IMG/VR virus record: IMGVR_UViG_3300023174_000048
Coordinates: 64,001-128,000 of that record
Reading direction: 5' to 3' (one strand)
DNA length: 64,000 nt
Source of the DNA: a virus
Lineage: Duplodnaviria > Caudoviricetes
Shown: in pieces, positions 4,530-47,770 of the stretch
Position numbering within the stretch: position 1 is the stretch's first letter
Layout: each line of letters opens with the position of its first letter
The notes under the pieces: model-generated
What the model was told of the DNA's origin: nothing
The model's input: the letters and a program-made list of their open reading frames with translations, nothing else
Database searches by the model: none
Position numbers and translations under genes: made by a program

Positions 4530-5375
4530 ATGAGTAAAAATATATTAATATTAGGTAATGGGTTTATTGGTAAGAACCTATACGCATATTTTGTTTCTAA
4601 ATATAATACAACTATTACTAGTAAAAAAGATATAGATATCACAAAAATCGAAACCGTTAGAAACTATCTGTCTGATAAAAATTTTGATTATGTTATTTAC
4701 TCTATCGGAATAAAAGATATTGCTGAATGTGAGAAATATCCAGATAAAGCATATGCTATTAACTCTAACGGTGTTGCTAATGTTATCAAATCTCTAAATA
4801 AAGATACCAAATTTATTTATATATCTACAGACTATGTATTTGATGGTAACGCAGGAGGATATTCAGAAAACTCTGTATCTCTACCGTCAACCACTTACGG
4901 ACAATCCAAACTAATAGGAGAACAACACTCACTCCAGCACAATAACTCTATTGTTGTTAGAACATCCGGAGTATATGGAGAAAATTGTCTTTGGCTTAAA
5001 AACTTATTAATTTCTTTGTCAGAGAAGAAAGAAACTGTATGTTTTTCTGATGTATATAATACTCCAACATATGCTATCAATTTAGCAGAAATGATTGACG
5101 ATATTATTAATATTAATTTTGTAGGAGTTATCCATTTAAGCGGGAATACAAGAAATAATAGATATGAACTATACTCATCTGTGGCTACTATATTTGAGAG
5201 GGATCTTTCTCTTTTGTCTAGCGGACTATCAGATGGAAAATTTCCTAAAGATATTTCATTAAATAATAATTTGTATAAACAAATAACTAAAAAAATACCA
5301 GATTCTGTAACTAGCGGACTAACAAGACTAAAAAATGAACATCAATATATTGATCCCGTCAACTTCATCAATTAA
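4530..5375 (+). CDS. rmlD: dTDP-4-dehydrorhamnose reductase
   Basis: Rossmann N-terminus, ISTDYVFDG, YGQSK (YxxxK), RTSGVYG, PTYA. Confidence 0.9.
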   Translation: MSKNILILGNGFIGKNLYAYFVSKYNTTITSKKDIDITKIETVRNYLSDKNFDYVIYSIGIKDIAECEKYPDKAYAINSNGVANVIKSLNKDTKFIYISTDYVFDGNAGGYSENSVSLPSTTYGQSKLIGEQHSLQHNNSIVVRTSGVYGENCLWLKNLLISLSEKKETVCFSDVYNTPTYAINLAEMIDDIININFVGVIHLSGNTRNNRYELYSSVATIFERDLSLLSSGLSDGKFPKDISLNNNLYKQITKKIPDSVTSGLTRLKNEHQYIDPVNFIN

Positions 5376-6228
5376 TACTATTAATAATGGAGCAAATGTT
5401 CAAGGGGATGAACTAGTTGCTCGATCCTGGGCAAAATATCTACAAAAAGATACAAGAGTTTCTAATGTAGATATTAATGGATTTGGCATATATGATGTTT
5501 CTATATCCTTTAGTCCATTAGTAAACCAACAAATGACAGGATATAAAGTACTATATCTACAAAATGTTTTTCCAAAACCCACTTGGCCAGGTACTGTTGA
5601 AGTTTATCATCAAATAAAAAATAACTATGATAGTTTTATATTTCCATCTGAAGGACTAATGAACAACTGTGGCGAAGGGCTTGTATGTCAATTTGCTGTT
5701 GATCCTGATTTATTTTTTCCTAAATCTATAAACGATAATTTATCTCATAACTTGTGTTTTGTAGGAAATAATATTAGAGATCAACAAACATCAGAAAAAT
5801 ATTTATTATGTGCTAAAGATAAAGGATTGGTTATATACGGTAATCCAGCAGGATGGAACTCTCCACTATGCAAAGGAAAGATAAGCATAGATGACGAAGC
5901 CACACTATACTCTTCTTCAAAAATCTGTTTAAATGCTCATCTTACTGAACACTTAGATTATGGCTCATATAATTTTCGTATATTTAATATTCTAGCATGT
6001 AAAGGTTTTATTATTTCTGACAGATCTCAATTCTTAGAAACAGAATTTAATAACTGCATGGAATTTACAGACGGAAATGATGATCTTCTTTCAAAGATTG
6101 ATTATTATTTAAATAATCCAGAAGAGACAAATAAATATAGAGAATATGGTTATAATCATATTTTATCTAAACATACTTTCAAACACAGAATGTCAGATCT
6201 ATTAAACTGGCTAGGAATAAAATTATGA
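5335..6228 (+). CDS. CgeB-like glycosyltransferase (GT-B)
   Basis: LCFVGN, SKICLN, NFRIFNILACKGFIISD, HTFKHR motifs. Confidence 0.8.
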   Translation: MNINILIPSTSSINTINNGANVQGDELVARSWAKYLQKDTRVSNVDINGFGIYDVSISFSPLVNQQMTGYKVLYLQNVFPKPTWPGTVEVYHQIKNNYDSFIFPSEGLMNNCGEGLVCQFAVDPDLFFPKSINDNLSHNLCFVGNNIRDQQTSEKYLLCAKDKGLVIYGNPAGWNSPLCKGKISIDDEATLYSSSKICLNAHLTEHLDYGSYNFRIFNILACKGFIISDRSQFLETEFNNCMEFTDGNDDLLSKIDYYLNNPEETNKYREYGYNHILSKHTFKHRMSDLLNWLGIKL

Positions 6229-7606: not shown

Positions 7607-8173
7607 ATGGATCATATATATAATCAACCTCAATTTGGTGAAGACTGGTTCGATTATCAGGATGTTTATTCTGAATTTGCACGAGACTGTCCAGATAACG
7701 GACATATTATAGAAATAGGATCATGGAAAGGTAAAAGTTCAGTATTCATGGCTGTTGAAATTATAAATTCTAATAAAAAAATTAAATTTGATTGTATAGA
7801 TACTTGGCTAGGAACCGCTAATGATCAATGTCATAAAGATATTATTAAAAATATAAATAATAAATTATTTGAAGTATTTTTACAAAATATTAAACCAGTA
7901 AATAATATTATAACTCCTATTAAAAAAACATCAGAAGAAGCCAGTTTATTGTATGAAGATGAATCAGTAGATATAGTATTTATTGATGCCGATCATTCAG
8001 AAGAAGCTGTAAAAAAAGATATTAACTTATGGCTACCAAAAGTCAAAAAAAATGGTATACTAGCTGGTCACGATTATTTTTCATGGCCAGGAGTACAAAA
8101 AGCGGTTAATGAACTTATAGGTAATAAAAATATAAAAACTAAAACATCTTGCTGGATACATCATAAATTATGA
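7607..8173 (+). CDS. class I SAM-dependent methyltransferase (Methyltransf_24-like)
   Basis: IEIGSWKGKS, FIDADHS, GILAGHDY. Confidence 0.85.
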   Translation: MDHIYNQPQFGEDWFDYQDVYSEFARDCPDNGHIIEIGSWKGKSSVFMAVEIINSNKKIKFDCIDTWLGTANDQCHKDIIKNINNKLFEVFLQNIKPVNNIITPIKKTSEEASLLYEDESVDIVFIDADHSEEAVKKDINLWLPKVKKNGILAGHDYFSWPGVQKAVNELIGNKNIKTKTSCWIHHKL

Positions 8174-8694
8174 ATCATACATTTATTGTTAATAAATTAA
8201 TTTCTGATATAATTTTAATTAAAACGCAAATATATGAAGATCATAGAGGAACTTTATATGAGATATATAATAAAGAACTATTCATTAAAAATAAAATACC
8301 AGAAATAGTACAAGAGAAATCCTCATTCTCAAAATATAAAGTATTAAGAGGATTACACTATCAAAAAGAACCCCATGGACAAGGGAAAATAGTTAGATGC
8401 AATAAAGGTAAAATTTTTGATGTTGCTGTTGATATTAGAGAAAATTCAACAACATATAAACAATGGGTTTCGTATGAATTATCAGAATCTAATAAAGATA
8501 TGGTATATATACCACCAGGATTTGCTCATGGAATATTAGTATTAAGCGAGGATGGTGCAGACTTTAGCTACTTTACAACAGAAAAACACTATCCAGAATA
8601 TGAAACAGTAATATCATACGATGATCCAACAATAAATATAGATTGGCCAATTAAAGATGTAATTCTATCAAATAAGGACAAAGGAAACAAATGA
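8170..8694 (+). CDS. rmlC: dTDP-4-dehydrorhamnose 3,5-epimerase
   Basis: DHRG, VLRGLHYQ, QGKIVRC, DVAVDIR, PPGFAHG. Confidence 0.95.
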   Translation: MNHTFIVNKLISDIILIKTQIYEDHRGTLYEIYNKELFIKNKIPEIVQEKSSFSKYKVLRGLHYQKEPHGQGKIVRCNKGKIFDVAVDIRENSTTYKQWVSYELSESNKDMVYIPPGFAHGILVLSEDGADFSYFTTEKHYPEYETVISYDDPTINIDWPIKDVILSNKDKGNK

Positions 8695-29416: not shown

Positions 29417-30148
29417 TTGAGAAAAACTAATAAAAACTCAAAGAAAAAAACTAGGGTTATTGATGCAACAAATAGTTTGGAGCCCAAAGGAGCCGCTTAT
29501 AGGAATCGATTAAAACCAAGAACTGAAAATCAAAAAGAATATATAAGGACTGTTGCAGAAAATACTATTACGTTTTGTCAAGGACTAGCCGGTAGTGGTA
29601 AAACACATATTGCTATTGGAATGGCTCTTGAATATCTTTTAGACGAAAAAGTAAAAAAGATTATTATCACAAGACCAATATTAGAAGCCGGAGAAAAAAT
29701 GGGATATCTCCCAGGATCAGCAGAAGAAAAATTACATCCTTATCTATTGCCGATACTAGATGAAATTGGACACTTCATAAGTTCGGCACATTATGCTTCA
29801 CTAAGATTGAATAATAAAGTTGAAGTCGTGCCACTCGGACTCATGAGAGGTCGTAATTTTCATAATGCTTTTATTGTTGCTGATGAGTGCCAAAACGCAT
29901 CATATGAACAATTAAAAATGTTAATAACAAGAACAGGACAATCTAGTAAAATGGTTTTAACTGGTGACGTTGCTCAGTCTGACCTAAGCAGACATTTGCA
30001 AGGTGGTTTTAGTGATATGATATCAGCCCTTAATGGAGTTGAAGGTATAGGTTATTCTAAATTAGAAGCCTCAGATATTGTAAGAAATCCAATTATCTCT
30101 AAAATCTTATATAGACTTGATGATTATGAGCAGCAAAGCCGAAAATAG
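29417..30148 (+). CDS. phoH: PhoH family ATPase
   Basis: GLAGSGKT, TRP, GYLPG, MRGRNF, DECQN, TGDVAQSD. Confidence 0.95.
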   Translation: MRKTNKNSKKKTRVIDATNSLEPKGAAYRNRLKPRTENQKEYIRTVAENTITFCQGLAGSGKTHIAIGMALEYLLDEKVKKIIITRPILEAGEKMGYLPGSAEEKLHPYLLPILDEIGHFISSAHYASLRLNNKVEVVPLGLMRGRNFHNAFIVADECQNASYEQLKMLITRTGQSSKMVLTGDVAQSDLSRHLQGGFSDMISALNGVEGIGYSKLEASDIVRNPIISKILYRLDDYEQQSRK

Positions 30149-30716
30149 TAAATGCTTATTATTAAACGCAGACTATGCCCCTCTGAGAATAATATCTTGG
30201 CAGAGGGCTATAGTTTGGTCTATTAGATATGAAGATAATAAAAATTATGGTATTGAAATATTATCATATTATAAAGATAAGCATATTCAAGGATCTGCCG
30301 GAAAACAATATCCAGTTCCAGCAGTAGCCAAAACTCTTAGATTCTTTAATATGTATGATAGAAAGATTAATTTTTCGAGACATAATTTATTTATTAGAGA
30401 TAATCATACATGTCAATATTGTGGAATTCAATTGTGCTCTTCACAATTAACATATGATCATATAGTTCCAAAATGTAGATTTAACGAGAACAAAAGACTA
30501 TCAACAAATTGGAAGAATATAGTGACCGCTTGTAGACCCTGTAATCACAAGAAGGGTAATAGGACGCCAAAAGAAGCAGGAATGAAACTGATAAACTCAC
30601 CAATAGAACCAAATTACTCATTAGAGTACTTGCCTTGGTTTCAGGAAGTCTCTACTATAAGGGGCGGACCTTCGTATGAATTATGGAAACCTTTTATAAA
30701 TATACAATATGCATGA
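30126..30716 (+). CDS. HNH endonuclease
   Basis: RDNHTCQYCG, TYDHIVP, W.NIVTACRPCNHKKG. Confidence 0.9.
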   Translation: MSSKAENSKCLLLNADYAPLRIISWQRAIVWSIRYEDNKNYGIEILSYYKDKHIQGSAGKQYPVPAVAKTLRFFNMYDRKINFSRHNLFIRDNHTCQYCGIQLCSSQLTYDHIVPKCRFNENKRLSTNWKNIVTACRPCNHKKGNRTPKEAGMKLINSPIEPNYSLEYLPWFQEVSTIRGGPSYELWKPFINIQYA

Positions 30717-32506: not shown

Positions 32507-32929
32507 ATGTATCCATCAAGATACTCAAATGGGAAAACTGTCTCTGCTGCTCAATATATAACAGAGTTGATATGTGAGCATAAGGCGACAATGGAAAAAT
32601 TGGATCTTCATTATAGATTTTGGACCAATAAAGAATGGTCTAAGTACTATAGAGATCAGATAGCAACAGCAAATAAGTTATTAAAAAAATATAGTGCCAA
32701 AGCTATTATCAGAGCCTTAAATGATAAAAAAGCAGAGAGAATCTATTCTTTGCGAGCACCTCATCTGTTGGCTATAATAGACCACCACGAAACTCTGCTA
32801 GGATCAGAAAACACAGAGCTAACAGAGAATATTGACAGATCAGAGAAAAAAACTTTTAGACATAAAACAAATACAAAACAAGGCATACTTTCTAAGTTAA
32901 AGGAATTAGATGATGGCAACAACTCTTAA
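32507..32929 (+). CDS. hypothetical replication-associated protein
   Basis: In-frame ATG 32507; AAQYITELIC, IYSLRAP. Confidence 0.65.
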   Translation: MYPSRYSNGKTVSAAQYITELICEHKATMEKLDLHYRFWTNKEWSKYYRDQIATANKLLKKYSAKAIIRALNDKKAERIYSLRAPHLLAIIDHHETLLGSENTELTENIDRSEKKTFRHKTNTKQGILSKLKELDDGNNS

Positions 32930-34964
32930 AGAAGATGTAATTAAAAACTTTGGTGATGAGATTATATTGTCTGGCAATGCTATGGTAGACAAGAAAGTAT
33001 TAACCATTCCTGTTAGTCCATCATTAGATATTGCTTTAAATGGTGGTATACCAGAAGGTAGTTTTGTTGTTTTAACGGGACAACCCAAATGTGGTAAGCT
33101 ACAACGATTGACCGATTTAATTTATACTCCAAATGGTCGAGTAACTATTGGATCAATAAAATCAGAAGATATAATATGTAATCCTAATGGATCTACATCT
33201 AAAGTAATTGGTATTTATCCTCAAGGTAAAAAGGATATTTATCAGGTTAGTTTTAATGATGGTTCCAAAACCTATTGTGGACTAGAACATAATTGGTTGG
33301 TAGCAAAAAATAATCGAACAAATGACTACAAAGTTTTAACTTTACAAGAAATTATATCGGAAGGATTAAGACTAAATGATCGTTGGAAATGGAAAATTCC
33401 ACTAACAAAACCAGTTTATTTTAAGCAAACAAAAAAGCTTTCAATTGATCCGTATATTCTTGGATGTTTGATCGGTGACGGAGGATTAACACAAAAAACT
33501 CCAAAAATCACCACATCAGATCAGTTTATTCTAAGAAAATTCAAAATCTTTGTTAAAAAACGTGGCTTATCTATCAAGCAAGTGTCTCAATATGATTATA
33601 ATATAAGTGGAAAAATAGATTCAAACGTTTTAATTAGAAATACTATTACAAAAGATCTTAAAGAATTAAAACTTTATGGTTGCTCTTCGCATGATAAGTT
33701 TATTCCACAACACTACAGATACTCCTCTATATCAAATAGATGGAAACTTATACGCGGCCTAATGGACACAGACGGATCAAATGACAATGGACTTAGAGCA
33801 GAATATTCCACTGTTTCTGAAACATTGGCAAAAGATGTTCAAGAAGTTTTAGAAAGCTTAGGATACACCTGTCAAATAAAACACAGATTTACAGGATATG
33901 AAGGTAAAGAGGGTAAGCAATTTCCATCTTATAGATTATATATTCATGGTAACGATATTGATAAACTCTTTAGTTTACCAAGAAAGAAAAGTGGACATAT
34001 TAGAAGTAAGCCAGACCTTCATAGAACAATAGTTGATGTAGAAAAGGTTTCTCAAGAAGAAGCTATTTGTATTGAAGTAGATAGTCCTGATGGATTATAT
34101 CTAACAAATAATTTCATTGTTACTCATAATACGACAACATCATTAGCGTTTGCAGCAACGGCACAAAAAAAAGAATATGCTCATGGCTCATTTAAAGATG
34201 GTCGCCAAGTGTACTACCTTAACATTGAGGGTAGATTGAAGAAAAGAGATTTAGAAGGAATACCGGGACTAGACCTAAGTAGATTCCATATTATAGGAAG
34301 TCAACAAGGTAAGATTTTACACGGTGAAGAATATTTGCAAATTGGTGAAAGAATTATTAATGAAATACCAGGATGTGTTCTTATTATAGATTCATACTCT
34401 GCTCTGTGTACCGAAGCAGAAATCACCAGCGATATGGATAAAATGCAAAGAGCAGATGGCGCTAAGCTATTAGCAAAATTTTGTCGTAAAGTTGCCAACG
34501 TTATTCCCGTTAATCGTAATATTGTTATAGGTATTACTCACTTAATGGGTAATCCCACAGGTTATGGAGCAGAGTTTAAGGAAAAAAGTGGTCAAGCTAT
34601 TGCTTATCAGACTGATATTAAGCTCAGAGCCAAGACATTTAAACCGTGGATCGTTGGGACAGACAATACTCAAATAGGGCAGGAGATCGAATGGCAGGTG
34701 GTCTGTTCGGCACTTGGGCCTCCTGGGGCTGTGACAACCAGCTATGTTAGATATGGCCAAGGAATTGATAAGTATACAGAATTGATCAATTTAGCATCTG
34801 ATGTTGGTATTATTAATAAGGGCGGAGCTTGGTATACAATAACCGTACTTGATGATAAGCCAAAATTTCAAGGTACAGAAAAAGTTAGAAATTTTCTATT
34901 AGAAAATAAAGAAGCATACGATCTAGTTGAAAAGTCTGTTAAAGAGGTTTTAGGAATTAAATGA
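32910..34964 (+). CDS. recA: RecA/UvsX recombinase precursor containing an intein
   Basis: SLDIALNGGIP, split Walker A GQPKCGK|T, YLNIEG, IIDSYSAL. Confidence 0.9.
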   Translation: MMATTLKEDVIKNFGDEIILSGNAMVDKKVLTIPVSPSLDIALNGGIPEGSFVVLTGQPKCGKLQRLTDLIYTPNGRVTIGSIKSEDIICNPNGSTSKVIGIYPQGKKDIYQVSFNDGSKTYCGLEHNWLVAKNNRTNDYKVLTLQEIISEGLRLNDRWKWKIPLTKPVYFKQTKKLSIDPYILGCLIGDGGLTQKTPKITTSDQFILRKFKIFVKKRGLSIKQVSQYDYNISGKIDSNVLIRNTITKDLKELKLYGCSSHDKFIPQHYRYSSISNRWKLIRGLMDTDGSNDNGLRAEYSTVSETLAKDVQEVLESLGYTCQIKHRFTGYEGKEGKQFPSYRLYIHGNDIDKLFSLPRKKSGHIRSKPDLHRTIVDVEKVSQEEAICIEVDSPDGLYLTNNFIVTHNTTTSLAFAATAQKKEYAHGSFKDGRQVYYLNIEGRLKKRDLEGIPGLDLSRFHIIGSQQGKILHGEEYLQIGERIINEIPGCVLIIDSYSALCTEAEITSDMDKMQRADGAKLLAKFCRKVANVIPVNRNIVIGITHLMGNPTGYGAEFKEKSGQAIAYQTDIKLRAKTFKPWIVGTDNTQIGQEIEWQVVCSALGPPGAVTTSYVRYGQGIDKYTELINLASDVGIINKGGAWYTITVLDDKPKFQGTEKVRNFLLENKEAYDLVEKSVKEVLGIK
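33099..34130 (+). mobile_element. 344-aa intein with LAGLIDADG homing endonuclease in the RecA P-loop
   Basis: Ends IVTHN before Thr; blocks ILGCLIGDG and IRGLMDTDG; begins LQRLTDLIYTP. Confidence 0.9.
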
Positions 34965-35380
34965 ATATTATTGATTTAGATGGAAATCAGATTAACTGGA
35001 GCCTAACTGGTCATATTTCTAAAGGAAGAATTCATGATAAGTCTTCTTTCCATTTAGCAGCCAGGAAATTACTAATAGATAGTTTTCCAACACTGCAAAT
35101 ACTAGAAGAAGTTCCTATTCCATTAAGAAGATCAGAAACACTATATCTTGATTTTTATTTACCGCTAATAAAAAGAGTAATAGAGGTTCATGGAGAACAA
35201 CACTATAAGTTTATTCCATTCTATCATAGTTCTAAAATGAATTTTTTAAAAGCACAAAAAAGAGATAATGAAAAAAAAGAATGGTGTGAAAAAAATGGTA
35301 TAACTCATACCGTATTGCCATATAATGAGCCAATAGAAACATGGAGAAAGATACTGTCTTATGAGCACACGAACAGCTAA
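34961..35380 (+). CDS. PD-(D/E)XK / Vsr-like endonuclease
   Basis: LDFYLP..VIEVHGEQHY..QKRDNEK. Confidence 0.75.
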   Translation: MNIIDLDGNQINWSLTGHISKGRIHDKSSFHLAARKLLIDSFPTLQILEEVPIPLRRSETLYLDFYLPLIKRVIEVHGEQHYKFIPFYHSSKMNFLKAQKRDNEKKEWCEKNGITHTVLPYNEPIETWRKILSYEHTNS

Positions 35381-39669: not shown

Positions 39670-40194
39670 ATGCAAAAAATATATAATATATCAAAAGAAT
39701 ATTTAATAGAGCATTATACGAAACAAAAAAAGAGTGCTCAAATAATTTGTGAAGAATTGAATATAAAATCTAAAACAGTAATATTTCGATTATTAAAAAA
39801 ATACAATATACCTATAAATGTAATCAGCAGAGAAGGCCGTCCCCGCAATAATACTAAAAAGTTTGGAGACATACATCAATCATATATTTATATTCTAAAA
39901 AATAGAGCAAAAAATAAAAACCTAGTGTTTAATTTAACTGGAAATGATTTGTGGTCTTTATTTTTAAAACAAAATAAAAAATGTGCCTTGTCTGGTCTAA
40001 CTATTATTTTTCCTTCTGCTTGGGGTGCTAAATCGAAAACACAAATTACTGCTTCTTTAGACAGAATAGACTCTACTCAAGGATATATTAAAGACAATGT
40101 GCAATGGGTACATAAAAAAATTAATAGTATGAAAATGGATATGACAGATCAAGAATTTATCTCTTTATGTAAAATGGTAGCAAAACACTCATGA
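39670..40194 (+). CDS. free-standing HNH-type homing endonuclease
   Basis: CALSG..ASLDRIDSTQGYIKDNVQWVH...N.MK; N-terminal HTH. Confidence 0.8.
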   Translation: MQKIYNISKEYLIEHYTKQKKSAQIICEELNIKSKTVIFRLLKKYNIPINVISREGRPRNNTKKFGDIHQSYIYILKNRAKNKNLVFNLTGNDLWSLFLKQNKKCALSGLTIIFPSAWGAKSKTQITASLDRIDSTQGYIKDNVQWVHKKINSMKMDMTDQEFISLCKMVAKHS

Positions 40195-41231
40195 TAATAA
40201 CATATTTTAGAAGTTCATCTTATAACACACATTCTCTTTGCGAACAGCAATATTTTGGTGAGTACGTACTGGGGTGGCGAGGATTGTCTGGCCAAAAAGC
40301 AGATAAAGGAACTATTACTCATAAAGTTCTTGAAATTTTAGCGGTTATGAAAAAAGCCGAGCAAGATGGACAAACTACTATTGATGACGATCTTATCGGA
40401 TTAGTTGATATTAATAATTATGATTTAAATAATTTAATAGAGAAAGTATATACCTATTATACTAATAATGCTCAGCACCATAAATGGTCAGCCAAAGATC
40501 ATAGAGACTGTAAAGACTGGGTTTATAAGGCTATAGAATTTAATGGCGGAATGTTTGATCCTAGAAAAAGAAATATTCTTTGTCCAGAACAACACTTTGA
40601 TTTTGAGATTAAAAAACCCTGGGCTAAATACTCTTATGATATTGGCGGAGAAAAACTTGAGGGCAATCTAGCACTAAAGGGCACAATTGACTTAATAACA
40701 CTGGTTAATGATTCTACAATAGAAGTAATAGACTGGAAAACTGGAAAAAGATTAGATTGGGCTACTGGAGAAGAAAAAACCCAAGAGAAGCTAGAAAAAG
40801 ATCCACAGTTAAAGATCTATCACTATGCAATAAAACATCTTTATCCTCATATTAAGAATATAATATTTTCAATATATTTTATTAATGATGGTGGACCATT
40901 CTCCATTTGTTTTCATGATTCTGATCTAGCATCAACAGAAGATATGCTAAGACAAAAATTTGAAGCAATTAAAAGCACTAAAAAGCCAAGACTACATAAA
41001 AGCTGGATGTGCAGTAAGTTGTGTCATTTTGGCAAAACAACATTTGATGGAACTCATATTCAGCCAATAGAGGAATACAGAGATGGACAAGTATGCAAAG
41101 TTGGTCAAACCATGACAAAGTGCGAACAGATAAAACATGACCTTGATCTTTATGGAATCGACACTACAATTGGATTGTACAAGAACAAGAATCATTCGTT
41201 TGGAAGTTACAAAGCCCCCGGATCAATATGA
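40191..41231 (+). CDS. Cas4/RecB-like PD-(D/E)XK exonuclease with probable Fe-S ligands
   Basis: C near the N-terminus, G...HKVLE, GTIDLI, DWKTG, QL..Y, CSKLC..C. Confidence 0.85.
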   Translation: MIITYFRSSSYNTHSLCEQQYFGEYVLGWRGLSGQKADKGTITHKVLEILAVMKKAEQDGQTTIDDDLIGLVDINNYDLNNLIEKVYTYYTNNAQHHKWSAKDHRDCKDWVYKAIEFNGGMFDPRKRNILCPEQHFDFEIKKPWAKYSYDIGGEKLEGNLALKGTIDLITLVNDSTIEVIDWKTGKRLDWATGEEKTQEKLEKDPQLKIYHYAIKHLYPHIKNIIFSIYFINDGGPFSICFHDSDLASTEDMLRQKFEAIKSTKKPRLHKSWMCSKLCHFGKTTFDGTHIQPIEEYRDGQVCKVGQTMTKCEQIKHDLDLYGIDTTIGLYKNKNHSFGSYKAPGSI

Positions 41232-43096
41232 CAAAAACATATTCAGTTCTTCATGCTCATTCTCACTATAGTCTTTTAGACGGAATTAGTAAACCTAGTC
41301 AAATAGCGGAAAGGTGCGTTAATGCCGGAATTAAAACCTGTGCAATAACTGATCATGGAACTATTTCCGGATGTGTTCAGTTTTATCAGGCGATGAAGGT
41401 CAAAAAGATTAAGCCAATATTAGGTTGTGAACTTTATATATCTAAAAACGACTCCCTCATTAAAGAGAAAGAGAATAAAGATTTAAGTCATTTCCTCGTT
41501 CTTGCTAAAAACCTAGCAGGATGGAAGACCCTTGTAAAAATCATATCTGAAACTAATAGAACAGACAACTTCTATCATAAGCCTAGAATTAGTTTTGATA
41601 GATTGGCACCTATGCTGGACGGAAATATAATAGGATTTTGTGGTCATTTAGGATCAAGTATATCAGACTTGGTTCAGGAAAATCCCGATAACTATACTGA
41701 TAAGGCAATGTCTTTTATAGACTATATGAAAGAAATATTTGGCAAAGATAATTTCTTTTTAGAAGCCCAACTCATGGATCAGGAACTAAATCCTAAACAA
41801 AAAGAAATGACAGATATAATGAGACAATTATCTGTTAAGACTAAAACTAAAATAATAGCCACTCCAGACGCTCACTATTGTGAAAGAAAAGACGCTATTG
41901 ATCAAAGGATTTTATTATGTAATAATCTTAAGACAACTTTAATAGATATAAATAAGAAACTCTTGGCTAATGAGGAAGTGCCAATGGGTTGTTTTTTTAA
42001 ATCGGACAACTATCATATTCCAGATCCAGAAGAAATGACGAAGTGGCATACTAGCGAAGAAATTGAAAATACTCTATATGTTGATTCAATGTGCGAAGAG
42101 TATTCTATTCTTAGTAAGCCAGCCCTTCCTGCCTTTGAATGTCCAAACAACTCTAATCCAGAAGAATATCTGAGACAATTATGTAGAGATGGTTGGCGAG
42201 AGAAGATAATGAATGATATTCCAGAGTCTGAGCATACCAAATATGCAGACAGAGTAAAATTAGAATTAGATATTTTACAAAAAGCTGGATTATCTAGTTA
42301 CTTTCTTATAGTACAAGATATTGTAAACTATGTTAAAAAGAGTGGATGGCTTCCCGGAGCAGGAAGAGGAAGTGCTGCAGGATGTTTGGTGTCATATCTT
42401 ATTGGTATTACTCAAATTGATCCTATCAAATATAATTTACTGTTTGAAAGATTTTATAATGAGGGCCGTAATACTGCGGATCATATTTCCATGCCAGATA
42501 TTGATGTTGATGTTCCAATTAATAAAAGAGAACAGATCATCGAATATATTAAAAATAAGTATGGTTCAGACAAGGTTTCTCAAATGATTACATTTAATAC
42601 TATGAAAGGCAGAGGTGCCTTAAAAGAAGTATTAAGAGTGTATGACAATATCTCTTTTGAAGAAATGAATCGAATAACGAAGTTCATTCCTGACGAAGCA
42701 AAAATTGCTGACGAATTACAGGAAATGAAAGAAGATACCGGAGAGGCATCTATTATCAGGTGGGCACTAGAAAACAATGTTGACAAACTGAAGGAGTGGT
42801 GCTATATTAGTGATGATGGTTCTCTTGCCGGACCTTTGGCCAAAAGGTTTGAACAAGCCATTCGACTTGAAGGAACTAAATCTAATCAATCCAAACATGC
42901 CGCCGGTGTAGTTATTAGTAGTCAAAGTCTCAGTGCTATTTGTCCCATGGTTTATGATTCTAAAAATAAACAAGCAATAGCAGGGATGGAGATGCAAGAT
43001 TTGGAAAATTTAGGTTTAATCAAATTTGATATTCTAGGCGTTGCTATGTTAGACAAAATTATGACCATATCAGAAATTTTATGCAAAGGAGAATAA
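41228..43096 (+). CDS. dnaE: DNA polymerase III alpha, N-terminal half (PHP + palm/thumb)
   Basis: HAHSHYSLLDG, GRGSAAG, PDIDVD, KHAAG, KFDILG. Confidence 0.95.
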   Translation: MTKTYSVLHAHSHYSLLDGISKPSQIAERCVNAGIKTCAITDHGTISGCVQFYQAMKVKKIKPILGCELYISKNDSLIKEKENKDLSHFLVLAKNLAGWKTLVKIISETNRTDNFYHKPRISFDRLAPMLDGNIIGFCGHLGSSISDLVQENPDNYTDKAMSFIDYMKEIFGKDNFFLEAQLMDQELNPKQKEMTDIMRQLSVKTKTKIIATPDAHYCERKDAIDQRILLCNNLKTTLIDINKKLLANEEVPMGCFFKSDNYHIPDPEEMTKWHTSEEIENTLYVDSMCEEYSILSKPALPAFECPNNSNPEEYLRQLCRDGWREKIMNDIPESEHTKYADRVKLELDILQKAGLSSYFLIVQDIVNYVKKSGWLPGAGRGSAAGCLVSYLIGITQIDPIKYNLLFERFYNEGRNTADHISMPDIDVDVPINKREQIIEYIKNKYGSDKVSQMITFNTMKGRGALKEVLRVYDNISFEEMNRITKFIPDEAKIADELQEMKEDTGEASIIRWALENNVDKLKEWCYISDDGSLAGPLAKRFEQAIRLEGTKSNQSKHAAGVVISSQSLSAICPMVYDSKNKQAIAGMEMQDLENLGLIKFDILGVAMLDKIMTISEILCKGE

Positions 43097-43097
43097 A

Positions 43098-43277
43098 ATG
43101 CAAAAACAATTTCATGAACTAGCGATTGGCGATAGGTTCACAGTTAATGGTGTTGAATATATTAAAACTGAAGAAGTTAGAGTTAGCTGTTGCAGAAGTA
43201 TCAATTGTTATGCTTCTTCTGACGCTAATCAAAAAGGACATTTTCCCGGAAATACAGAAGTTACAATAAATGGCTAA
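43098..43277 (+). CDS. 59-aa Cys-containing protein (absent from ORF track)
   Basis: Translated by hand: MQKQFHELAIGDRFTVNGVEYIKTEEVRVSCCRSINC...; AAGGAG RBS. Confidence 0.75.
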   Translation: MQKQFHELAIGDRFTVNGVEYIKTEEVRVSCCRSINCYASSDANQKGHFPGNTEVTING

Positions 43278-43965
43278 TCTACAAAAAATTTGTGTCTTTG
43301 ATTTGGAAACAGACGGAGTTAATCCTGATCTTTGCAGTCCAGTTCAAATTGCTGCGGTTATGGTTGATCCACTAAAATTAGAAATAGTTAAAGATTCAGA
43401 ATTCAATATTACCGTTAAGCCGTTGATACTAGAAGAAAAACCAGAGTATGTTTATTCTGATTCCGATGTTCTGGACTTTCATGCCAAGGTAAAAGGAAGT
43501 ACAAAAGATCAGATTTTAGAATCTTGGAAAGCATACCAGAAGCAAGAGCACGGATGGAATATGTTCATATCCTACCTGGAAATGTATCATATTAGATCCA
43601 GCGGTAAGAAGTCTTGTTTCACGGCACCTATTGCTGCTGGTTATAATATTAATAGGTTTGATCTTAGGATAATAGAAAGATTAAGTCAAAAATATAATAA
43701 TCTGAATAAAGAAGGACGATCCTCTTTGTTTTATCCTAGAGACGTGATAGATATCATGAATTTAGTATTTTATTGGTTTGAAGGAAATAGCGAACTAAAA
43801 AATTATACTCTAGATAACCTTAGAGATTATCTTGGTATAGATAAAGAAGGTGCTCACGATGCTCTTAAGGATGTTCAAGATACGGCAAATATCTTAATTA
43901 GATTTTTAAAGTTACACAGAAGCTTGTCAAATAAGATTAAGTTTAAATCATCATTTATTGGATAA
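43270..43965 (+). CDS. dnaQ: DEDDh 3'-5' exonuclease (epsilon-like)
   Basis: FDLETDG, GYNINRFD, HDALKD. Confidence 0.9.
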   Translation: MANLQKICVFDLETDGVNPDLCSPVQIAAVMVDPLKLEIVKDSEFNITVKPLILEEKPEYVYSDSDVLDFHAKVKGSTKDQILESWKAYQKQEHGWNMFISYLEMYHIRSSGKKSCFTAPIAAGYNINRFDLRIIERLSQKYNNLNKEGRSSLFYPRDVIDIMNLVFYWFEGNSELKNYTLDNLRDYLGIDKEGAHDALKDVQDTANILIRFLKLHRSLSNKIKFKSSFIG

Positions 43966-43973
43966 ATTAATTA

Positions 43974-45599
43974 ATGGGTAAGTTTTTTACGTTTGATTGT
44001 GGTTGCAAGTTTCCGGTTATAGGCGATAATGAGAATTTTCCAAGAATAGATTTTTCTCCAAAATTATCTAATATCAACCTTAACTGTGAAAAAACATGGG
44101 ATTTAATATCTCTTGGTAATACCAAAGGATGTTTTCAATTAGAATCCAGACTAGGCCAAACAATGGCCAGAAAACTTAAACCCCATAATATTGAGCAGTT
44201 ATCTGGATTAATTAGTATTCTCAGGCCAGGATGTCTTGAGGCTATGAGAGATGGTAAAAGCGTATCAAACCATTATATTGATAAAAAGAATGGATTAGCA
44301 TCTATTGATTACTTTCATACTGCCTTAGAACCTATTCTTAAAGATACATATTCTGAAATGATTTATCAAGAACAGGCTATGTCTATTGCTAAAGAATTAG
44401 CTGGATTTAATCTTAAAGAAGCAGACGATCTTAGAAAAGCAATTGGTAAAAAACAAGCGGATAAAATGGCTAAGGTCAAAGAACAATTTATTATTGGTTC
44501 AAAAAATAAGGGACTGATAAACGAGCAGGAAGCAGAACAAATCTTTGAATGGATTGAAAAAAGTCAAAGATATTTATTTAATGCTAGTCATTCTATTAGT
44601 TATGCAATGAATGCTTATCTGTCTGCTTATGCTAAGGCCCATTTCCCAAGAGTCTTTTTTGCTTCGTATCTTAGGTTTGCCAAAGATAAGATAGATCCTC
44701 AACAAGAGATTAAAGAGTTGGTTAGAAATGCTATTGAAATGGATATTGAAATAAGAATACCAGACTTTAGAAATTTAAATGAATTATTCATACTCAAGGA
44801 TAAAAAGATATATTTTGGATTAACAGATATTAAGGGTGTTGGTAATTCAGTATATAAAAAGATTATCGATCTTGTTAAAGATTGTGATGTTAATGAATTA
44901 TCTTGGTCACAAACCATGTCTATAGTTCTTTTAAATATAAACTCTATTGCGGCCAAAGCAATGATTAGTTGTGGGGCGTTTGACTATTTTAAAAAGAATA
45001 GATCAGAATTGTTATTTGAATATGAGATATGCAGCGGCTTAACAAAGAAAGAGTTGGGATCTTTTAATGACTATATATCTGTTAAACCAGAATCTGGAAT
45101 ATTAGACATATTAAGACACATATATGACAATACTAAGCTTATAAAAGGTAGGAAAGAGGCTATTAATAACTATATACAATCTATGATACGTCCTCCATAT
45201 TCTTTGGTTGATAAAATAGAATGGCTATCTGATTCAGAAAATGGTCTACTTGGGGTGGGAATTACTTGTTCCAAATTAGATGCTTATGATGTAAGTTCTG
45301 CAAATTGTAATTGTAAAACATTTAAAACATCTTTAATTAAAGATAATATTATATTAGTTGGTGAAATTTCTAATATCAATGTTACCAAAACAAAAAATGG
45401 TAAAAACCCCGGATTGGAGATGGCATTTGTAACGATTGAGGACCAGTTTGGTACACTAGATACTGTGGTCTTTTTTCCAGAACCATTCTCTCAATATAGA
45501 TCGTATTTATTTATAGGAAGCATACTTGTATTTTCTGGTAATCGTAGTAAGTCGAAGGATGGGCTGATTGTGGAAAAGTGCTTTAATCCAGTTTCTTGA
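43974..45599 (+). CDS. dnaE: DNA polymerase III alpha, C-terminal half (fingers, HhH, OB)
   Basis: GCFQLES, LRPG, IYQEQ, LRKAIGKK, FNASH, GLTDIKGVG, MAFVTIED. Confidence 0.95.
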   Translation: MGKFFTFDCGCKFPVIGDNENFPRIDFSPKLSNINLNCEKTWDLISLGNTKGCFQLESRLGQTMARKLKPHNIEQLSGLISILRPGCLEAMRDGKSVSNHYIDKKNGLASIDYFHTALEPILKDTYSEMIYQEQAMSIAKELAGFNLKEADDLRKAIGKKQADKMAKVKEQFIIGSKNKGLINEQEAEQIFEWIEKSQRYLFNASHSISYAMNAYLSAYAKAHFPRVFFASYLRFAKDKIDPQQEIKELVRNAIEMDIEIRIPDFRNLNELFILKDKKIYFGLTDIKGVGNSVYKKIIDLVKDCDVNELSWSQTMSIVLLNINSIAAKAMISCGAFDYFKKNRSELLFEYEICSGLTKKELGSFNDYISVKPESGILDILRHIYDNTKLIKGRKEAINNYIQSMIRPPYSLVDKIEWLSDSENGLLGVGITCSKLDAYDVSSANCNCKTFKTSLIKDNIILVGEISNINVTKTKNGKNPGLEMAFVTIEDQFGTLDTVVFFPEPFSQYRSYLFIGSILVFSGNRSKSKDGLIVEKCFNPVS

Positions 45600-45623
45600 C
45601 AGTGTACAGCGGCAGTTTATAAT
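45596..45623 (+). promoter_or_regulatory. consensus sigma70 promoter for ssb
   Basis: TTGACA-16 nt-TATAAT; AAGGAG RBS downstream. Confidence 0.85.
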
Positions 45624-45661
45624 ATGGTAGTTGCGAGTTTTCTTTCTTAAGGAGTTGATTT

Positions 45662-46033
45662 ATGAATATTACGTTGCTAAAGGGTAATCTTGCTAGGGAT
45701 CCAGAACTAAGAAATGTAAATACTGGAGGAAAGCAAACATCAGTAGTTAATTTTACTGTTGCTGTTTCTCGTGAGTATACAAAGGCTAGTGGAGACAAGG
45801 ATAAGATTACTTCCTTTATAAATTGCGAAGCGTGGGATAGTGGTGCGGAAATGATATCTGAGTCATTCAAGAAGGGTGATCTGGTTATGGTTGAAGGATC
45901 TCTGAGAAATGATTCGTGGGAAAAGGATGGAGTTAAGCATAGTAGTCTAAAAGTTAGAGTAAATAACTTTTCAAAGATTACAAGACTTTCTAAGAATTCC
46001 AGACAGGATTCACAAGAGCCAGTAGCATTCTGA
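45662..46033 (+). CDS. ssb: single-stranded DNA-binding protein
   Basis: GNLARDPELR, FINCEAW, KGDLVMVEGSLR, C-terminal VAF. Confidence 0.95.
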   Translation: MNITLLKGNLARDPELRNVNTGGKQTSVVNFTVAVSREYTKASGDKDKITSFINCEAWDSGAEMISESFKKGDLVMVEGSLRNDSWEKDGVKHSSLKVRVNNFSKITRLSKNSRQDSQEPVAF

Positions 46034-46060
46034 TAAATATATTTAAACCCTTTTAAAGAT

Positions 46061-46091
46061 ATGGGGGTGCTAATACCACCCCCGTATTTTT
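46061..46091 (+). terminator. rho-independent terminator after ssb
   Basis: ATGGGGGTG-CTAATAC-CACCCCCGT then ATTTTT. Confidence 0.8.
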
Positions 46092-46099
46092 ATCTTCTT

Positions 46100-47770
46100 A
46101 TGACAAAACCAAAACTTAAAATCTTAATGTGTTCCGAGGCTAGTTTTATAAATTCTGGTTTTGGAATTTATACAAAAGAACTACTGAATAGACTGTATGA
46201 TACCGATAAATATGATATAGCAGAATTTGCTTCTTATGGATTTGTTAATGACCCAAGAGACACTTCTATAAGATGGAAGTATTATGCTAATGCTGTTAAG
46301 GATGGAGATCCTAGGCACAAAGAATATTCTTCTAGGGGAGACAATCAATTTGGAAGATGGAGATTTGAAAAAGTTCTTTTAGATTTTAAGCCCGACGTTG
46401 TTATTGATATCAGAGACTACTGGATGACAGCTTATCAGAGGACTTCCCCTCTGCGTAAGTTTTTCCATTGGGTGTTAATGCCAACAGTAGACTCATCACC
46501 ACAACAAGAAGAATGGATTGATACTTTCTTAGACGCCGATGCCATATTCACCTATTCTGATTGGGGTGCAAAAGTATTAAAAGACCAAGCATCTGGTAAA
46601 ATCAATTATATAGATACAACATCGCCAGGAATAGACTGTAATGTATTTAAGCCAAAAGACAGAAATACAATCAGATCAAATTTTGGAATAAGCGAAGATA
46701 GCTTTGTTGTTGGTTCAGTAATGAGGAACCAAAAAAGAAAATTAATTCCTGAGCTTTTTGCAACATTCAGGATCATTCTAGATAAACTAGAAGCAAATAA
46801 CAATAAAGAGCTGGCAGATAAAATATTCCTATATCTGCATACAAGCTATCCAGATATGGGATGGGATATACCGGAAATACTAAGACAGAACAGATTGACC
46901 AATAAAGTATTATTCACATACTTATGCAAAAGCTGTGGTAAGGTTTCTTGTTCAAAATTTCAAGGACCGAGCAAAGTATGCGATAGATGCCTAGCCAAAG
47001 CGAGCAGTTTCCCATCTGTTACAGACGGGGTTAGCTCTGAGGAATTAAGCAACATATATAATATATTTGATTTATATGTGCAGTATTCTATTTGCGAAGG
47101 ATTTGGTATGCCACAAGTTGAGGCTGGTGCTTGTGGTGTGCCTATTGCTACTGTAAATTATAGTGCCATGTGCGACATAGTAGACAGACTCAATGCTTAT
47201 CCTATAAAAATTAAATCAGCATTTAAAGAACTAGAAACCAAAGCAATCAGAGTATATCCAGACAATCAGGATCTTGCTGAATACATTTTAGACTTAGCAT
47301 CTCAGCCAAAACCCATTCTGAATAAGAAGAGATTTGAAACACATGAACTAACACATAAACACTATGATTGGAATAACACTTTTAAGAAATGGGAAAAATA
47401 TCTAGATAGTCTAGATTCATCGGGCTATAGATCAAATTGGAATACCGGAGAATATCTTGAACCATTGAATACTCAAATCAATAATCCCAGTAATAGTAAT
47501 TTTGATAATCTTTTACATATCCTAAATAATAATATGAAAAATGCATCAATGATTGGTGATCAAAAAATGCTAGAGTTATTGAATAGCTCAGATTATGGAT
47601 TCGTTCAAAATGGACCAACAAGTATTCTAGGATATGGTTTTCAAGACCTTAAAGAATATATTAAAACCAATATAGACAATAACAATCAAGCAAAACAAGC
47701 AAAAGACAGTAATATTACATTTGATGAAGATTTTATCTTATATTCGAAGCTAAAGAATAAACAACAATGA
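46100..47770 (+). CDS. GT4 glycosyltransferase with inserted zinc finger
   Basis: SGFG, VMRNQKRK, EGFGMPQVE; CKSC..C..CDRC insert; start moved past the terminator. Confidence 0.85.
   Translation: MTKPKLKILMCSEASFINSGFGIYTKELLNRLYDTDKYDIAEFASYGFVNDPRDTSIRWKYYANAVKDGDPRHKEYSSRGDNQFGRWRFEKVLLDFKPDVVIDIRDYWMTAYQRTSPLRKFFHWVLMPTVDSSPQQEEWIDTFLDADAIFTYSDWGAKVLKDQASGKINYIDTTSPGIDCNVFKPKDRNTIRSNFGISEDSFVVGSVMRNQKRKLIPELFATFRIILDKLEANNNKELADKIFLYLHTSYPDMGWDIPEILRQNRLTNKVLFTYLCKSCGKVSCSKFQGPSKVCDRCLAKASSFPSVTDGVSSEELSNIYNIFDLYVQYSICEGFGMPQVEAGACGVPIATVNYSAMCDIVDRLNAYPIKIKSAFKELETKAIRVYPDNQDLAEYILDLASQPKPILNKKRFETHELTHKHYDWNNTFKKWEKYLDSLDSSGYRSNWNTGEYLEPLNTQINNPSNSNFDNLLHILNNNMKNASMIGDQKMLELLNSSDYGFVQNGPTSILGYGFQDLKEYIKTNIDNNNQAKQAKDSNITFDEDFILYSKLKNKQQ

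Follow-up and report, generated by a model that had tools for sequence, protein, structure and literature searches.

A probable two-chain, intein-free C-family replicase in a freshwater phage, with the gene for its putative proofreader inside the split

Background

Polymerases of the C family replicate nearly all bacterial chromosomes, and to our knowledge all those with biochemical data consist of one chain, either from the start or after splicing. The split DnaE of cyanobacteria, described by Wu, Hu and Liu in 1998, is reportedly joined by naturally split inteins. The "fractured gene" layout, which is known from lake and marine samples, includes the DnaE-1, DnaE-2 and DnaE-3 loci (Dassa et al. 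2009, PMC2677866). The family B polymerase of T4-related Aeromonas phages is encoded in two genes without an intein, gp43A and gp43B (Petrov, Karam), and the pieces are believed to reassemble non-covalently, while the NrdA of phage Aeh1 is split by mobE (Edgell) and its halves have been shown to reconstitute an active reductase in this way (PMC2677866 for both). Group 2.2 jumbo phages have a minimal split Pol III module, in which the catalytic unit is divided between two free-standing proteins and is predicted to be restored from them (Iyer et al. 2021, PMC7824862). Here we discuss another such locus, in positions 64,001 to 128,000 of the IMG/VR virus record IMGVR_UViG_3300023174_000048 (Duplodnaviria; Caudoviricetes), a stretch of 64,000 nucleotides that we will call the window. 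In it the alpha subunit of DNA polymerase III, DnaE, is encoded by two genes, dnaE-N and dnaE-C, with a small gene (S) and an exonuclease gene (E) between them. Comparative sequence data lead us to regard it as probable that the products form an intein-free, two-chain C-family replicase that is held together non-covalently and has its proofreader encoded inside the split.

Gene organisation

The window comes from an uncultured freshwater (lake) phage with a genome of about 130 kb. The genes and elements that concern us are as follows.

41228..43096, plus strand: dnaE-N, 622 amino acids; PHP, palm and thumb (Pfam, phrog_405, alignment with Taq alpha)
43085..43091, plus strand: Shine-Dalgarno sequence AAAGGAG of gene S, seen in the letters themselves inside the final codons (K-G-E-stop) of dnaE-N
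43098..43277, plus strand: gene S, 59 amino acids; all-beta, with an invariant Cys31-Cys32 (80 loci, AlphaFold2 (AF2))
43270..43965, plus strand: gene E, 231 amino acids; DEDDh 3'-5' exonuclease of the DnaQ/epsilon type (Pfam RNase_T, phrog_192)
43974..45599, plus strand: dnaE-C, 541 amino acids; fingers, HhH and C-terminal OB fold (Pfam, phrog_405, Taq alpha)
43974..44099, plus strand: leader of dnaE-C (residues 1-42), a split-specific beta-hairpin F-x-F-D-C9-G-C11-K-F-P-V-I, then a conserved Cys38 (NLNCEKTW)

The original prediction, made from the letters of the window, was of four genes at 41228-45599 with S and E between the alpha halves and no shared reading frame, and the open reading frames (ORFs), Pfam domains and motifs are as it described. 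The frames of dnaE-N, S, E and dnaE-C are 2, 0, 1 and 0, and the two halves are 877 nucleotides apart, in different frames and with two genes in between. The four genes are tightly packed and translationally coupled: the stop of dnaE-N is 1 nucleotide from the ATG of S, the stop of S and the start of E overlap by 8 nucleotides in 67 of 75 loci, and in every locus measured E and dnaE-C either overlap, by at most 20 nucleotides, or lie no more than about 25 nucleotides apart. The KGE-stop (xGE) tail of the N-half is conserved because the same letters make up the Shine-Dalgarno sequence of S.

Domains and position of the break

The product of dnaE-N matches the Pfam families PHP (8e-37, residues 8-181) and DNA_pol3_alpha (9e-76), and has all three catalytic Asp, in PDIDVD (residues 423-428) and KFD (residues 599-601, within KFDILG, 599-604), both of which align with the catalytic motifs of Thermus aquaticus (Taq) alpha. 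Eight of the nine PHP metal ligands are identical to those of Taq in the alignment and one is changed from Cys to His. The protein ends 21 residues past D601, with LCKGE as residues 618-622. The product of dnaE-C matches DNA_pol3_finger (2e-41) and HHH_6 (1e-8), with OB at 25.6 bits, just below the cut-off of 27. It carries FDCGCKF at residues 7-13 and GCFQLES at residues 52-58, and its fingers motifs are fully conserved. The locus thus has the PHP, palm, fingers, HhH and OB elements of a DnaE-type C-family polymerase and departs from that type in not being a single polypeptide.

The profile of full-length phage DnaE, phrog_405 (1190 positions), is covered by the N-half at 41-610 and by the C-half at 622-1052, and therefore nothing conserved is lost. 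The N-half aligns with residues 7-625 of Taq alpha, with N608 at residue 625, and the C-half with residues 648-956, with C34 at residue 648. On other structures the same break falls at 588 and 606 of Mycobacterium tuberculosis DnaE1 and, for C32, at 587 of E. coli alpha. These structure alignments (N608/C34) place the cut after the first helix past the third catalytic Asp (D601). It had been proposed that the break is clean and loses no conserved sequence, which holds on alignment of both halves to DnaE profiles and structures, with the correction that the junction has about 21-25 extra residues, the N-terminal leader of dnaE-C. The tail of dnaE-N past its last DnaE-aligned residue is 14 amino acids.

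Conservation and selection

The closest genome is a virus record of 131,481 bp (G001), estimated to be 95% complete, that has 97-99% nucleotide identity to the window across the region. A scan of IMG/VR gave 80 related viral loci in which the N-half is 68-98% identical to dnaE-N of the window. More distant relatives came from an exhaustive HMMER search with dnaE-N as query against 1.84 billion cluster representatives, the best 150 of which (38-66% identity, clusters at 50% identity) were classified, and from a word-indexed search of clusters at 90% identity, for which residues 1-120 of dnaE-C were the query. Six split lineages were sampled, these being the window clade and L087, L088, L093, L094 and L096. 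Searches of phage GenBank found no cultured relative more than 36% identical to dnaE-N, and thus gave no example of this dnaE break that is annotated or has been studied by experiment.

Two questions that accompanied the original prediction, whether the arrangement recurs in related phage contigs and whether the junctions are an assembly artefact, can both be answered in its favour. The order PD-(D/E)XK nuclease, dnaE-N, S, E, dnaE-C, SSB and glycosyltransferase is kept in 80 of 80 IMG/VR loci, as far as the contigs reach. Contigs of 5.8 kb (run X2) and 69 kb (run X4) from independent freshwater metagenomes span all three junctions with no indels there, and there are agreeing independent assemblies from at least four studies. 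All four genes are under purifying selection, as the ratio of nonsynonymous to synonymous substitution rates (dN/dS), calculated pairwise for the window against six relatives, is 0.03-0.2 across dnaE-N, S, E and dnaE-C, and 0.06-0.2 for S.

In G001 we found no DNA_pol_A, DNA_pol_B or beta-clamp domain, and its single RNase_T gene is gene E. With no other polymerase in G001, and with replication genes around it, the split DnaE must be the replicase.

Absence of joining elements at the break

It had been stated that neither half has intein motifs, and this is upheld. Neither half matches a Hint or intein family in Pfam. The end of dnaE-N, where the tail is just 14 residues, has no N-intein, which would be about 90-105 amino acids long with Cys1 and blocks A and B, and there is no HN dipeptide in the 33-residue head of dnaE-C that could be the His-Asn end of a C-intein. 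There is no homing endonuclease gene between the halves in the window, the genes there being S and the DEDDh exonuclease. In the absence of intein halves and a homing endonuclease, trans-splicing is not possible at this break. An Rfam scan of 40000-47000 for intron RNA (E <= 1) gave just two chance-level matches to unrelated families.

The leader of dnaE-C

The leader has the pattern F-x-C-G-C-x-[FL] and further on a third Cys, shortly ahead of a conserved W. It reads FDCGCKF in the window, in whose clade it is conserved, YQFKCGCSF in L087, FTFKCGCKL in L088, YKFDCGCEL in L093, KLDCGCEF in L094 and LNFSCGCSF in L096, and is thus present in six of six split lineages; it is absent from six of six fused proteins. 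The AF2 model has it as a beta-hairpin (strands at residues 4-6 and 12-17) with the CxC at the turn and a predicted local distance difference test (pLDDT) score of 83-85. We suggest that the leader is a candidate for the element that docks the fingers onto the palm, and possibly it forms a small metal or disulfide knuckle.

Spread, age and direction of the split

Of the best 150 dnaE-N cluster representatives, 140 end within about 25 residues past the same DxLG...LDK helix, the others being six that are fused and run straight into the fingers, two that are truncated and two that are odd. The dnaE-C search matched 1086 clusters, and the 120 listed are about 540 amino acids long apart from two truncated ones; among the matches listed the JGI name, where given, is "DNA polymerase-3 subunit alpha". 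The break is thus ancient. It has been inherited and did not arise recently by chance, and it was present in the ancestor of a very large radiation of uncultured aquatic phages.

The gap between the halves is 0.9-4.9 kb in the six split lineages and has from 2 to 10 genes that differ between lineages, with a DEDD exonuclease in all six. Outside the window clade its contents are as follows.

L087: UDG (uracil-DNA glycosylase), 105-amino-acid protein, exonuclease, 87-amino-acid protein
L088: five small genes, exonuclease, four small genes
L093: UDG, IMPDH (IMP dehydrogenase), six further genes, exonuclease, 30-amino-acid protein; 4.9 kb in total
L094: 100- and 203-amino-acid proteins, exonuclease, methyltransferase, four further genes
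L096: 131-amino-acid protein, UDG, 113-amino-acid protein, exonuclease

The gap is a variable slot that always holds the DEDD exonuclease in these lineages. With regard to the fused relatives, L086 has no adjacent exonuclease, and in L089 and L090 the exonuclease is upstream of dnaE. Fused forms join N to C through as few as three residues. In L090 (1730-6407) dnaE is fused at this point and has a break of its own in the C-half, downstream of about residue 203, with a 303-amino-acid ORF of no family between the pieces and an exonuclease and a LAGLIDADG gene upstream.

In a FastTree tree of all 150 rows, rooted on the DnaE of Chryseobacterium phage MA9V-3, the fused forms make two groups, each inside a well-supported split clade, and the basal branches are split. 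An IQ-TREE tree of 53 rows has P0149, P0167 and P0218 nested in a starred clade with ten split forms. A single fused clade is not rejected by the approximately unbiased (AU) test (p = 0.1), and we do not claim two independent re-fusions as established. The CxC leader is a shared derived insertion and agrees with the trees, which points to a single origin of the split with later re-fusion. We hold this with moderate confidence, as the root rests on one long outgroup. The position of E upstream of dnaE in the fused L089 and L090 prompted us to consider whether E and dnaE were duplicated in tandem as a unit and the split then arose by reciprocal loss. The trees put the fused forms as derived, and that origin is speculation.

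The exonuclease and gene S

Gene E has the Exo I, II and III motifs FDLETDG, YNINRFD and HDALKD of a DEDDh exonuclease. It matches Pfam RNase_T at 1.7e-11, above the cut-off, and phrog_192, "DNA polymerase exonuclease subunit", at 2.4e-24. The tail of the protein, K-I-K-F-K-x-x-F (more generally K-[IV]-[KQ]-F-[KR]-x-x-F; residues 222-229, window 43933-43956), is conserved even in the divergent L058, L072 and L078, and may be a peptide that binds the polymerase or a clamp.

Gene S has the motif SCC...C and is kept at 30-98% identity across the 80 loci. The AF2 model (pLDDT 92.8) is an all-beta, five-stranded KOW/SH3-like barrel, and the best neighbours in a fold search are domain I of EF-P and of eIF5A at E of about 0.02-0.1. 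These KOW/EF-P-domain-I-like matches are too weak for us to assign a function to S from its fold. No Pfam or PHROG family was found for it, which includes a scan of the members tagged PF26909 in a precomputed table. Its homologues make up 130 clusters, all annotated as hypothetical, and a protein-atlas look-up gave viral "hypothetical protein" clusters only. A hidden Markov model of S had no match in the distant loci L086-L088. S appears to be confined to the subclade of the window, with no detectable sequence relative outside it. S has no likeness to HolE/HOT by sequence family, and its fold is all-beta. The complex of S, as the partner to be scored, with N (300-622), C (1-350) and E was also predicted, and the score was 0.00, which is below the mark and carries no weight either way. 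Our best guess is that S is an accessory of the exonuclease or of the polymerase core. L076 is the only one of these relatives with an extra HNH endonuclease gene between the halves, at 7837-8569 between dnaE-N and S, and there S stays attached to E.

Assembly of the polymerase and alternatives

We suggest that the N-half (PHP, palm with the three catalytic Asp, and thumb) and the C-half (fingers, HhH and OB) are translated from one tightly coupled string and most likely come together as an active polymerase without a covalent link, with nothing to rejoin them at the level of RNA or protein. The leader of about 20 residues on the C-half would help to dock the fingers onto the palm, and E, given its gene linkage, would act as the proofreading subunit of the two-chain polymerase. 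A non-covalent heteromeric replicase with its proofreader inside the split is what the original prediction proposed, and that part has comparative support in the 80 of 80 loci, the 140 of 150 clusters, the dN/dS values and the status as sole polymerase. The Cys clasp that was to join the parts, which we discuss below, is not supported.

Several points weigh against our reading. The split L058, L072 and L078 of the window clade have no CxC leader, which therefore is not strictly required. A search for a split-specific Cys in the N-half found none, and as a result no metal site between the subunits can be named. The number of re-fusions, and to a lesser extent the direction of change, is not firmly settled with a single long outgroup and an AU p of 0.1. 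Lastly, that N and C bind and are active is deduced by comparing sequences, and not from biochemistry or structure.

That the split arose in assembly, or marks a pseudogene in decay, is improbable enough to be neglected, and is already refuted by the agreement of independent assemblies, by dN/dS far below 1 and by this being the sole polymerase. It would be a different matter if the halves ended in one chain, through splicing of RNA (in trans or in cis), through bypass during translation or through ligation of the proteins without an intein. For this there is no direct support, although related phages do use protein splicing at another site in dnaE-N. Rfam found no intron family, the junction sequences are short tails without Hint motifs, and the gap of 877 nucleotides encodes two proteins with the dN/dS expected of purifying selection and in relatives extends to 4.9 kb with as many as ten unrelated genes, all of which makes a joined chain extremely unlikely. 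We also think it very unlikely that N and C are not one enzyme, N alone being a polymerase or PHP exonuclease and C a DNA- or clamp-binding accessory. N does indeed hold the full set of three catalytic Asp and a PHP metal site that looks intact. However the fingers supply the contacts to incoming nucleotide and template in solved DnaE structures, and the fingers motifs are fully conserved in C. Furthermore, wherever the sampled contig of a split lineage reaches C, both genes are there and in the same order, and the fused forms join them directly, through a link of three residues.

There remains the metal clasp, in which the Cys of LCKGE in the N tail, of FDCGCKF in C and of CCxxxxC in S were thought to bind metal and staple the halves together. 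In its favour, conservation is high both for the CxC of dnaE-C and for the CC pair of S. However only the window and its nearest relative, L001, have Cys619 in the N tail, with S, A, K, Q or L in other relatives, and the third Cys of S alternates with Ala, so that only Cys31-Cys32 is invariant. L058, L072 and L078 have no CxC leader and keep the CC pair of S. S is undetectable in L086-L088, of which L087 and L088 keep the leader. S itself is a KOW/SH3-like barrel with no zinc-ribbon features. The clasp is very unlikely, with both the N-tail Cys and the third Cys of S variable and S restricted to a subclade. As to the Cys noted at the new termini, the CxC leader of dnaE-C is indeed conserved with the split state, and the Cys of the N tail is not conserved beyond L001.

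Beyond the two-chain replicase itself, we put forward tentatively, and with more doubt than belief, that the split is adaptive as well as ancient. The CxC knuckle together with Cys38 could give a metal- or redox-dependent docking by which assembly of the replicase is regulated, and the gap could be a protected slot for accessories that are co-inherited and co-translated (proofreader, UDG, IMPDH, methylase and S).

Intein cassettes elsewhere in dnaE

The dnaE-N of G001 is cut by a cassette of about 1.2 kb at a site that is empty in the window.

42370..42373, plus strand: empty insertion site GRG|SAAG (dnaE-N residues 381/382), occupied by the intein cassette in G001 and run X4

In G001 (L085, 4502-5712) the cassette has an N-intein that starts with CFVPDT and has weak Intein_splicing, Hom_end_hint and Hint matches, then a free-standing gene of 269 amino acids with PD-(D/E)XK (Vsr-like) and endonuclease-I-like matches, and then a C-intein that ends with GVHN ahead of Ser (GVHN|SAAG). 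An Rfam scan of the insertion found no intron, and it is a split intein with an endonuclease gene. Comparison of metagenome contigs places the joint at 42370/42373 with 1213 letters between. The cassette is polymorphic: G001 and run X4 have it, the window and run X2 do not, and contigs of runs X3 and X6 run at their ends into the start of the intein. These phages thus use trans-splicing where there is an intein. The break between dnaE-N and dnaE-C is of a different and older kind than this intein-split site.

Inteins are present in many of the 140 split cluster representatives, near residue 66 or near residue 381, and these proteins still have the same C-terminal stop. In-frame insertions of about 250-400 amino acids are present at about residue 66 (in PHP), about residue 381 or both in P0146, P0147, P0153, P0155, P0157, P0164, P0168, P0172, P0181, P0184 and others. 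Inteins are the most likely explanation. The fingers of P0144 carry a further insertion. The DnaE family of these phages is an intein hotspot.

Neighbouring genes and other interruptions

The immediate neighbours of the four genes are as follows.

40191..41231, plus strand: PD-(D/E)XK nuclease gene, the upstream neighbour, with its stop overlapping the start of dnaE-N; Pfam PDDEXK_1 1e-14; syntenic in the 80 loci
45662..46033, plus strand: SSB gene, the downstream neighbour; Pfam SSB 9e-26; syntenic in the loci that reach that far

Genes for a DnaB-like helicase, primase, ribonucleotide reductase, deoxynucleoside monophosphate (dNMP) kinase and SSB are also nearby in the window. Between the dNMP kinase gene and the PD-(D/E)XK gene there is an HNH endonuclease gene at 39670-40194 (phrog_3322, phrog_1035). 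G001, at 97-99% identity, does not have it and has contiguous flanks at that point, and the gene looks like a free-standing endonuclease that was recently mobile. Further HNH genes are at 30117-30716 and 34961-35380. An ORF of 684 amino acids at 32910-34964 has PHROG matches to a terminase-like or DnaC-like ATPase (residues 53-409) and to UvsX/RecA-like proteins (residues 408-573). The syntenic gene of L096 is a RecA of 715 amino acids with a LAGLIDADG match, and the ORF may be a recombinase with an intein, or a fusion. The PD-(D/E)XK gene is interrupted by about 950 bp between residues 183/184 in L056, L059-L065 and L077 (about 4570-5510), and the glycosyltransferase gene by about 1.2 kb near residue 346 in L066, L067 and L075. 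These could be inteins, introns or endonuclease insertions.

Comparison with known systems

In open-access papers we found no description of an intein-free palm/fingers break in DnaE. The cultured marine Cellulophaga phage phiST (KC821604; L083, 4693-8293) has a DnaE annotated as the adjacent genes gp044 (525 amino acids) and gp045 (673 amino acids), which may be a true split or a frameshift. However its break falls within the palm, some 130 residues before that of the window, the two genes have nothing between them and the exonuclease is encoded several kb upstream.

With the E. coli Pol III core (alpha, epsilon and theta) the locus shares a DnaE-type polymerase, a separate DEDDh exonuclease and a small third protein encoded with them. 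In contrast to that core, alpha is two chains, S is all-beta while theta is helical, and the PHP ligands look intact, unlike those of E. coli alpha. As in the cyanobacterial and fractured cases DnaE is in two genes, and G001 even has the exact fractured layout, but at GRG|SAAG. The break between dnaE-N and dnaE-C has neither intein halves nor a homing endonuclease, and its position differs from those intein sites. The jumbo-phage modules are minimal, without PHP or other domains, are encoded at distant loci and stand beside a family B replicase, whereas the window has a full-length DnaE that is cut once, with its genes close together, as the only polymerase.

The closest parallels are gp43A/gp43B and the Aeh1 NrdA, each an essential phage replication enzyme in two nearby genes with no intein and with genes in between. 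The polymerase discussed here is of the C family, with a pol-beta-like palm, and that of gp43 is of family B. In contrast to both gp43 and NrdA, it is its own proofreading exonuclease, and not a homing endonuclease, that sits between the halves. The split is also ancestral to a large radiation and not sporadic, and the C-half has a split-specific CxC leader. What stands out is that a C-family replicase is affected, that the exonuclease gene is always kept between the halves and that the leader is lost upon re-fusion.

If our reading is right, a C-family polymerase in two pieces occurs naturally as the replicase of a large group of aquatic phages with a global distribution, and would provide a system for study of palm-fingers communication, of recruitment of the proofreader and of the long persistence of a broken essential gene. 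It would also be a natural evolutionary experiment, having fused revertants without the CxC leader beside split forms, and true split inteins at other dnaE sites, and the halves with the leader may serve as a split-enzyme scaffold. The locus belongs with gp43A/gp43B and the Aeh1 NrdA among the split phage replication enzymes, as a new variant.

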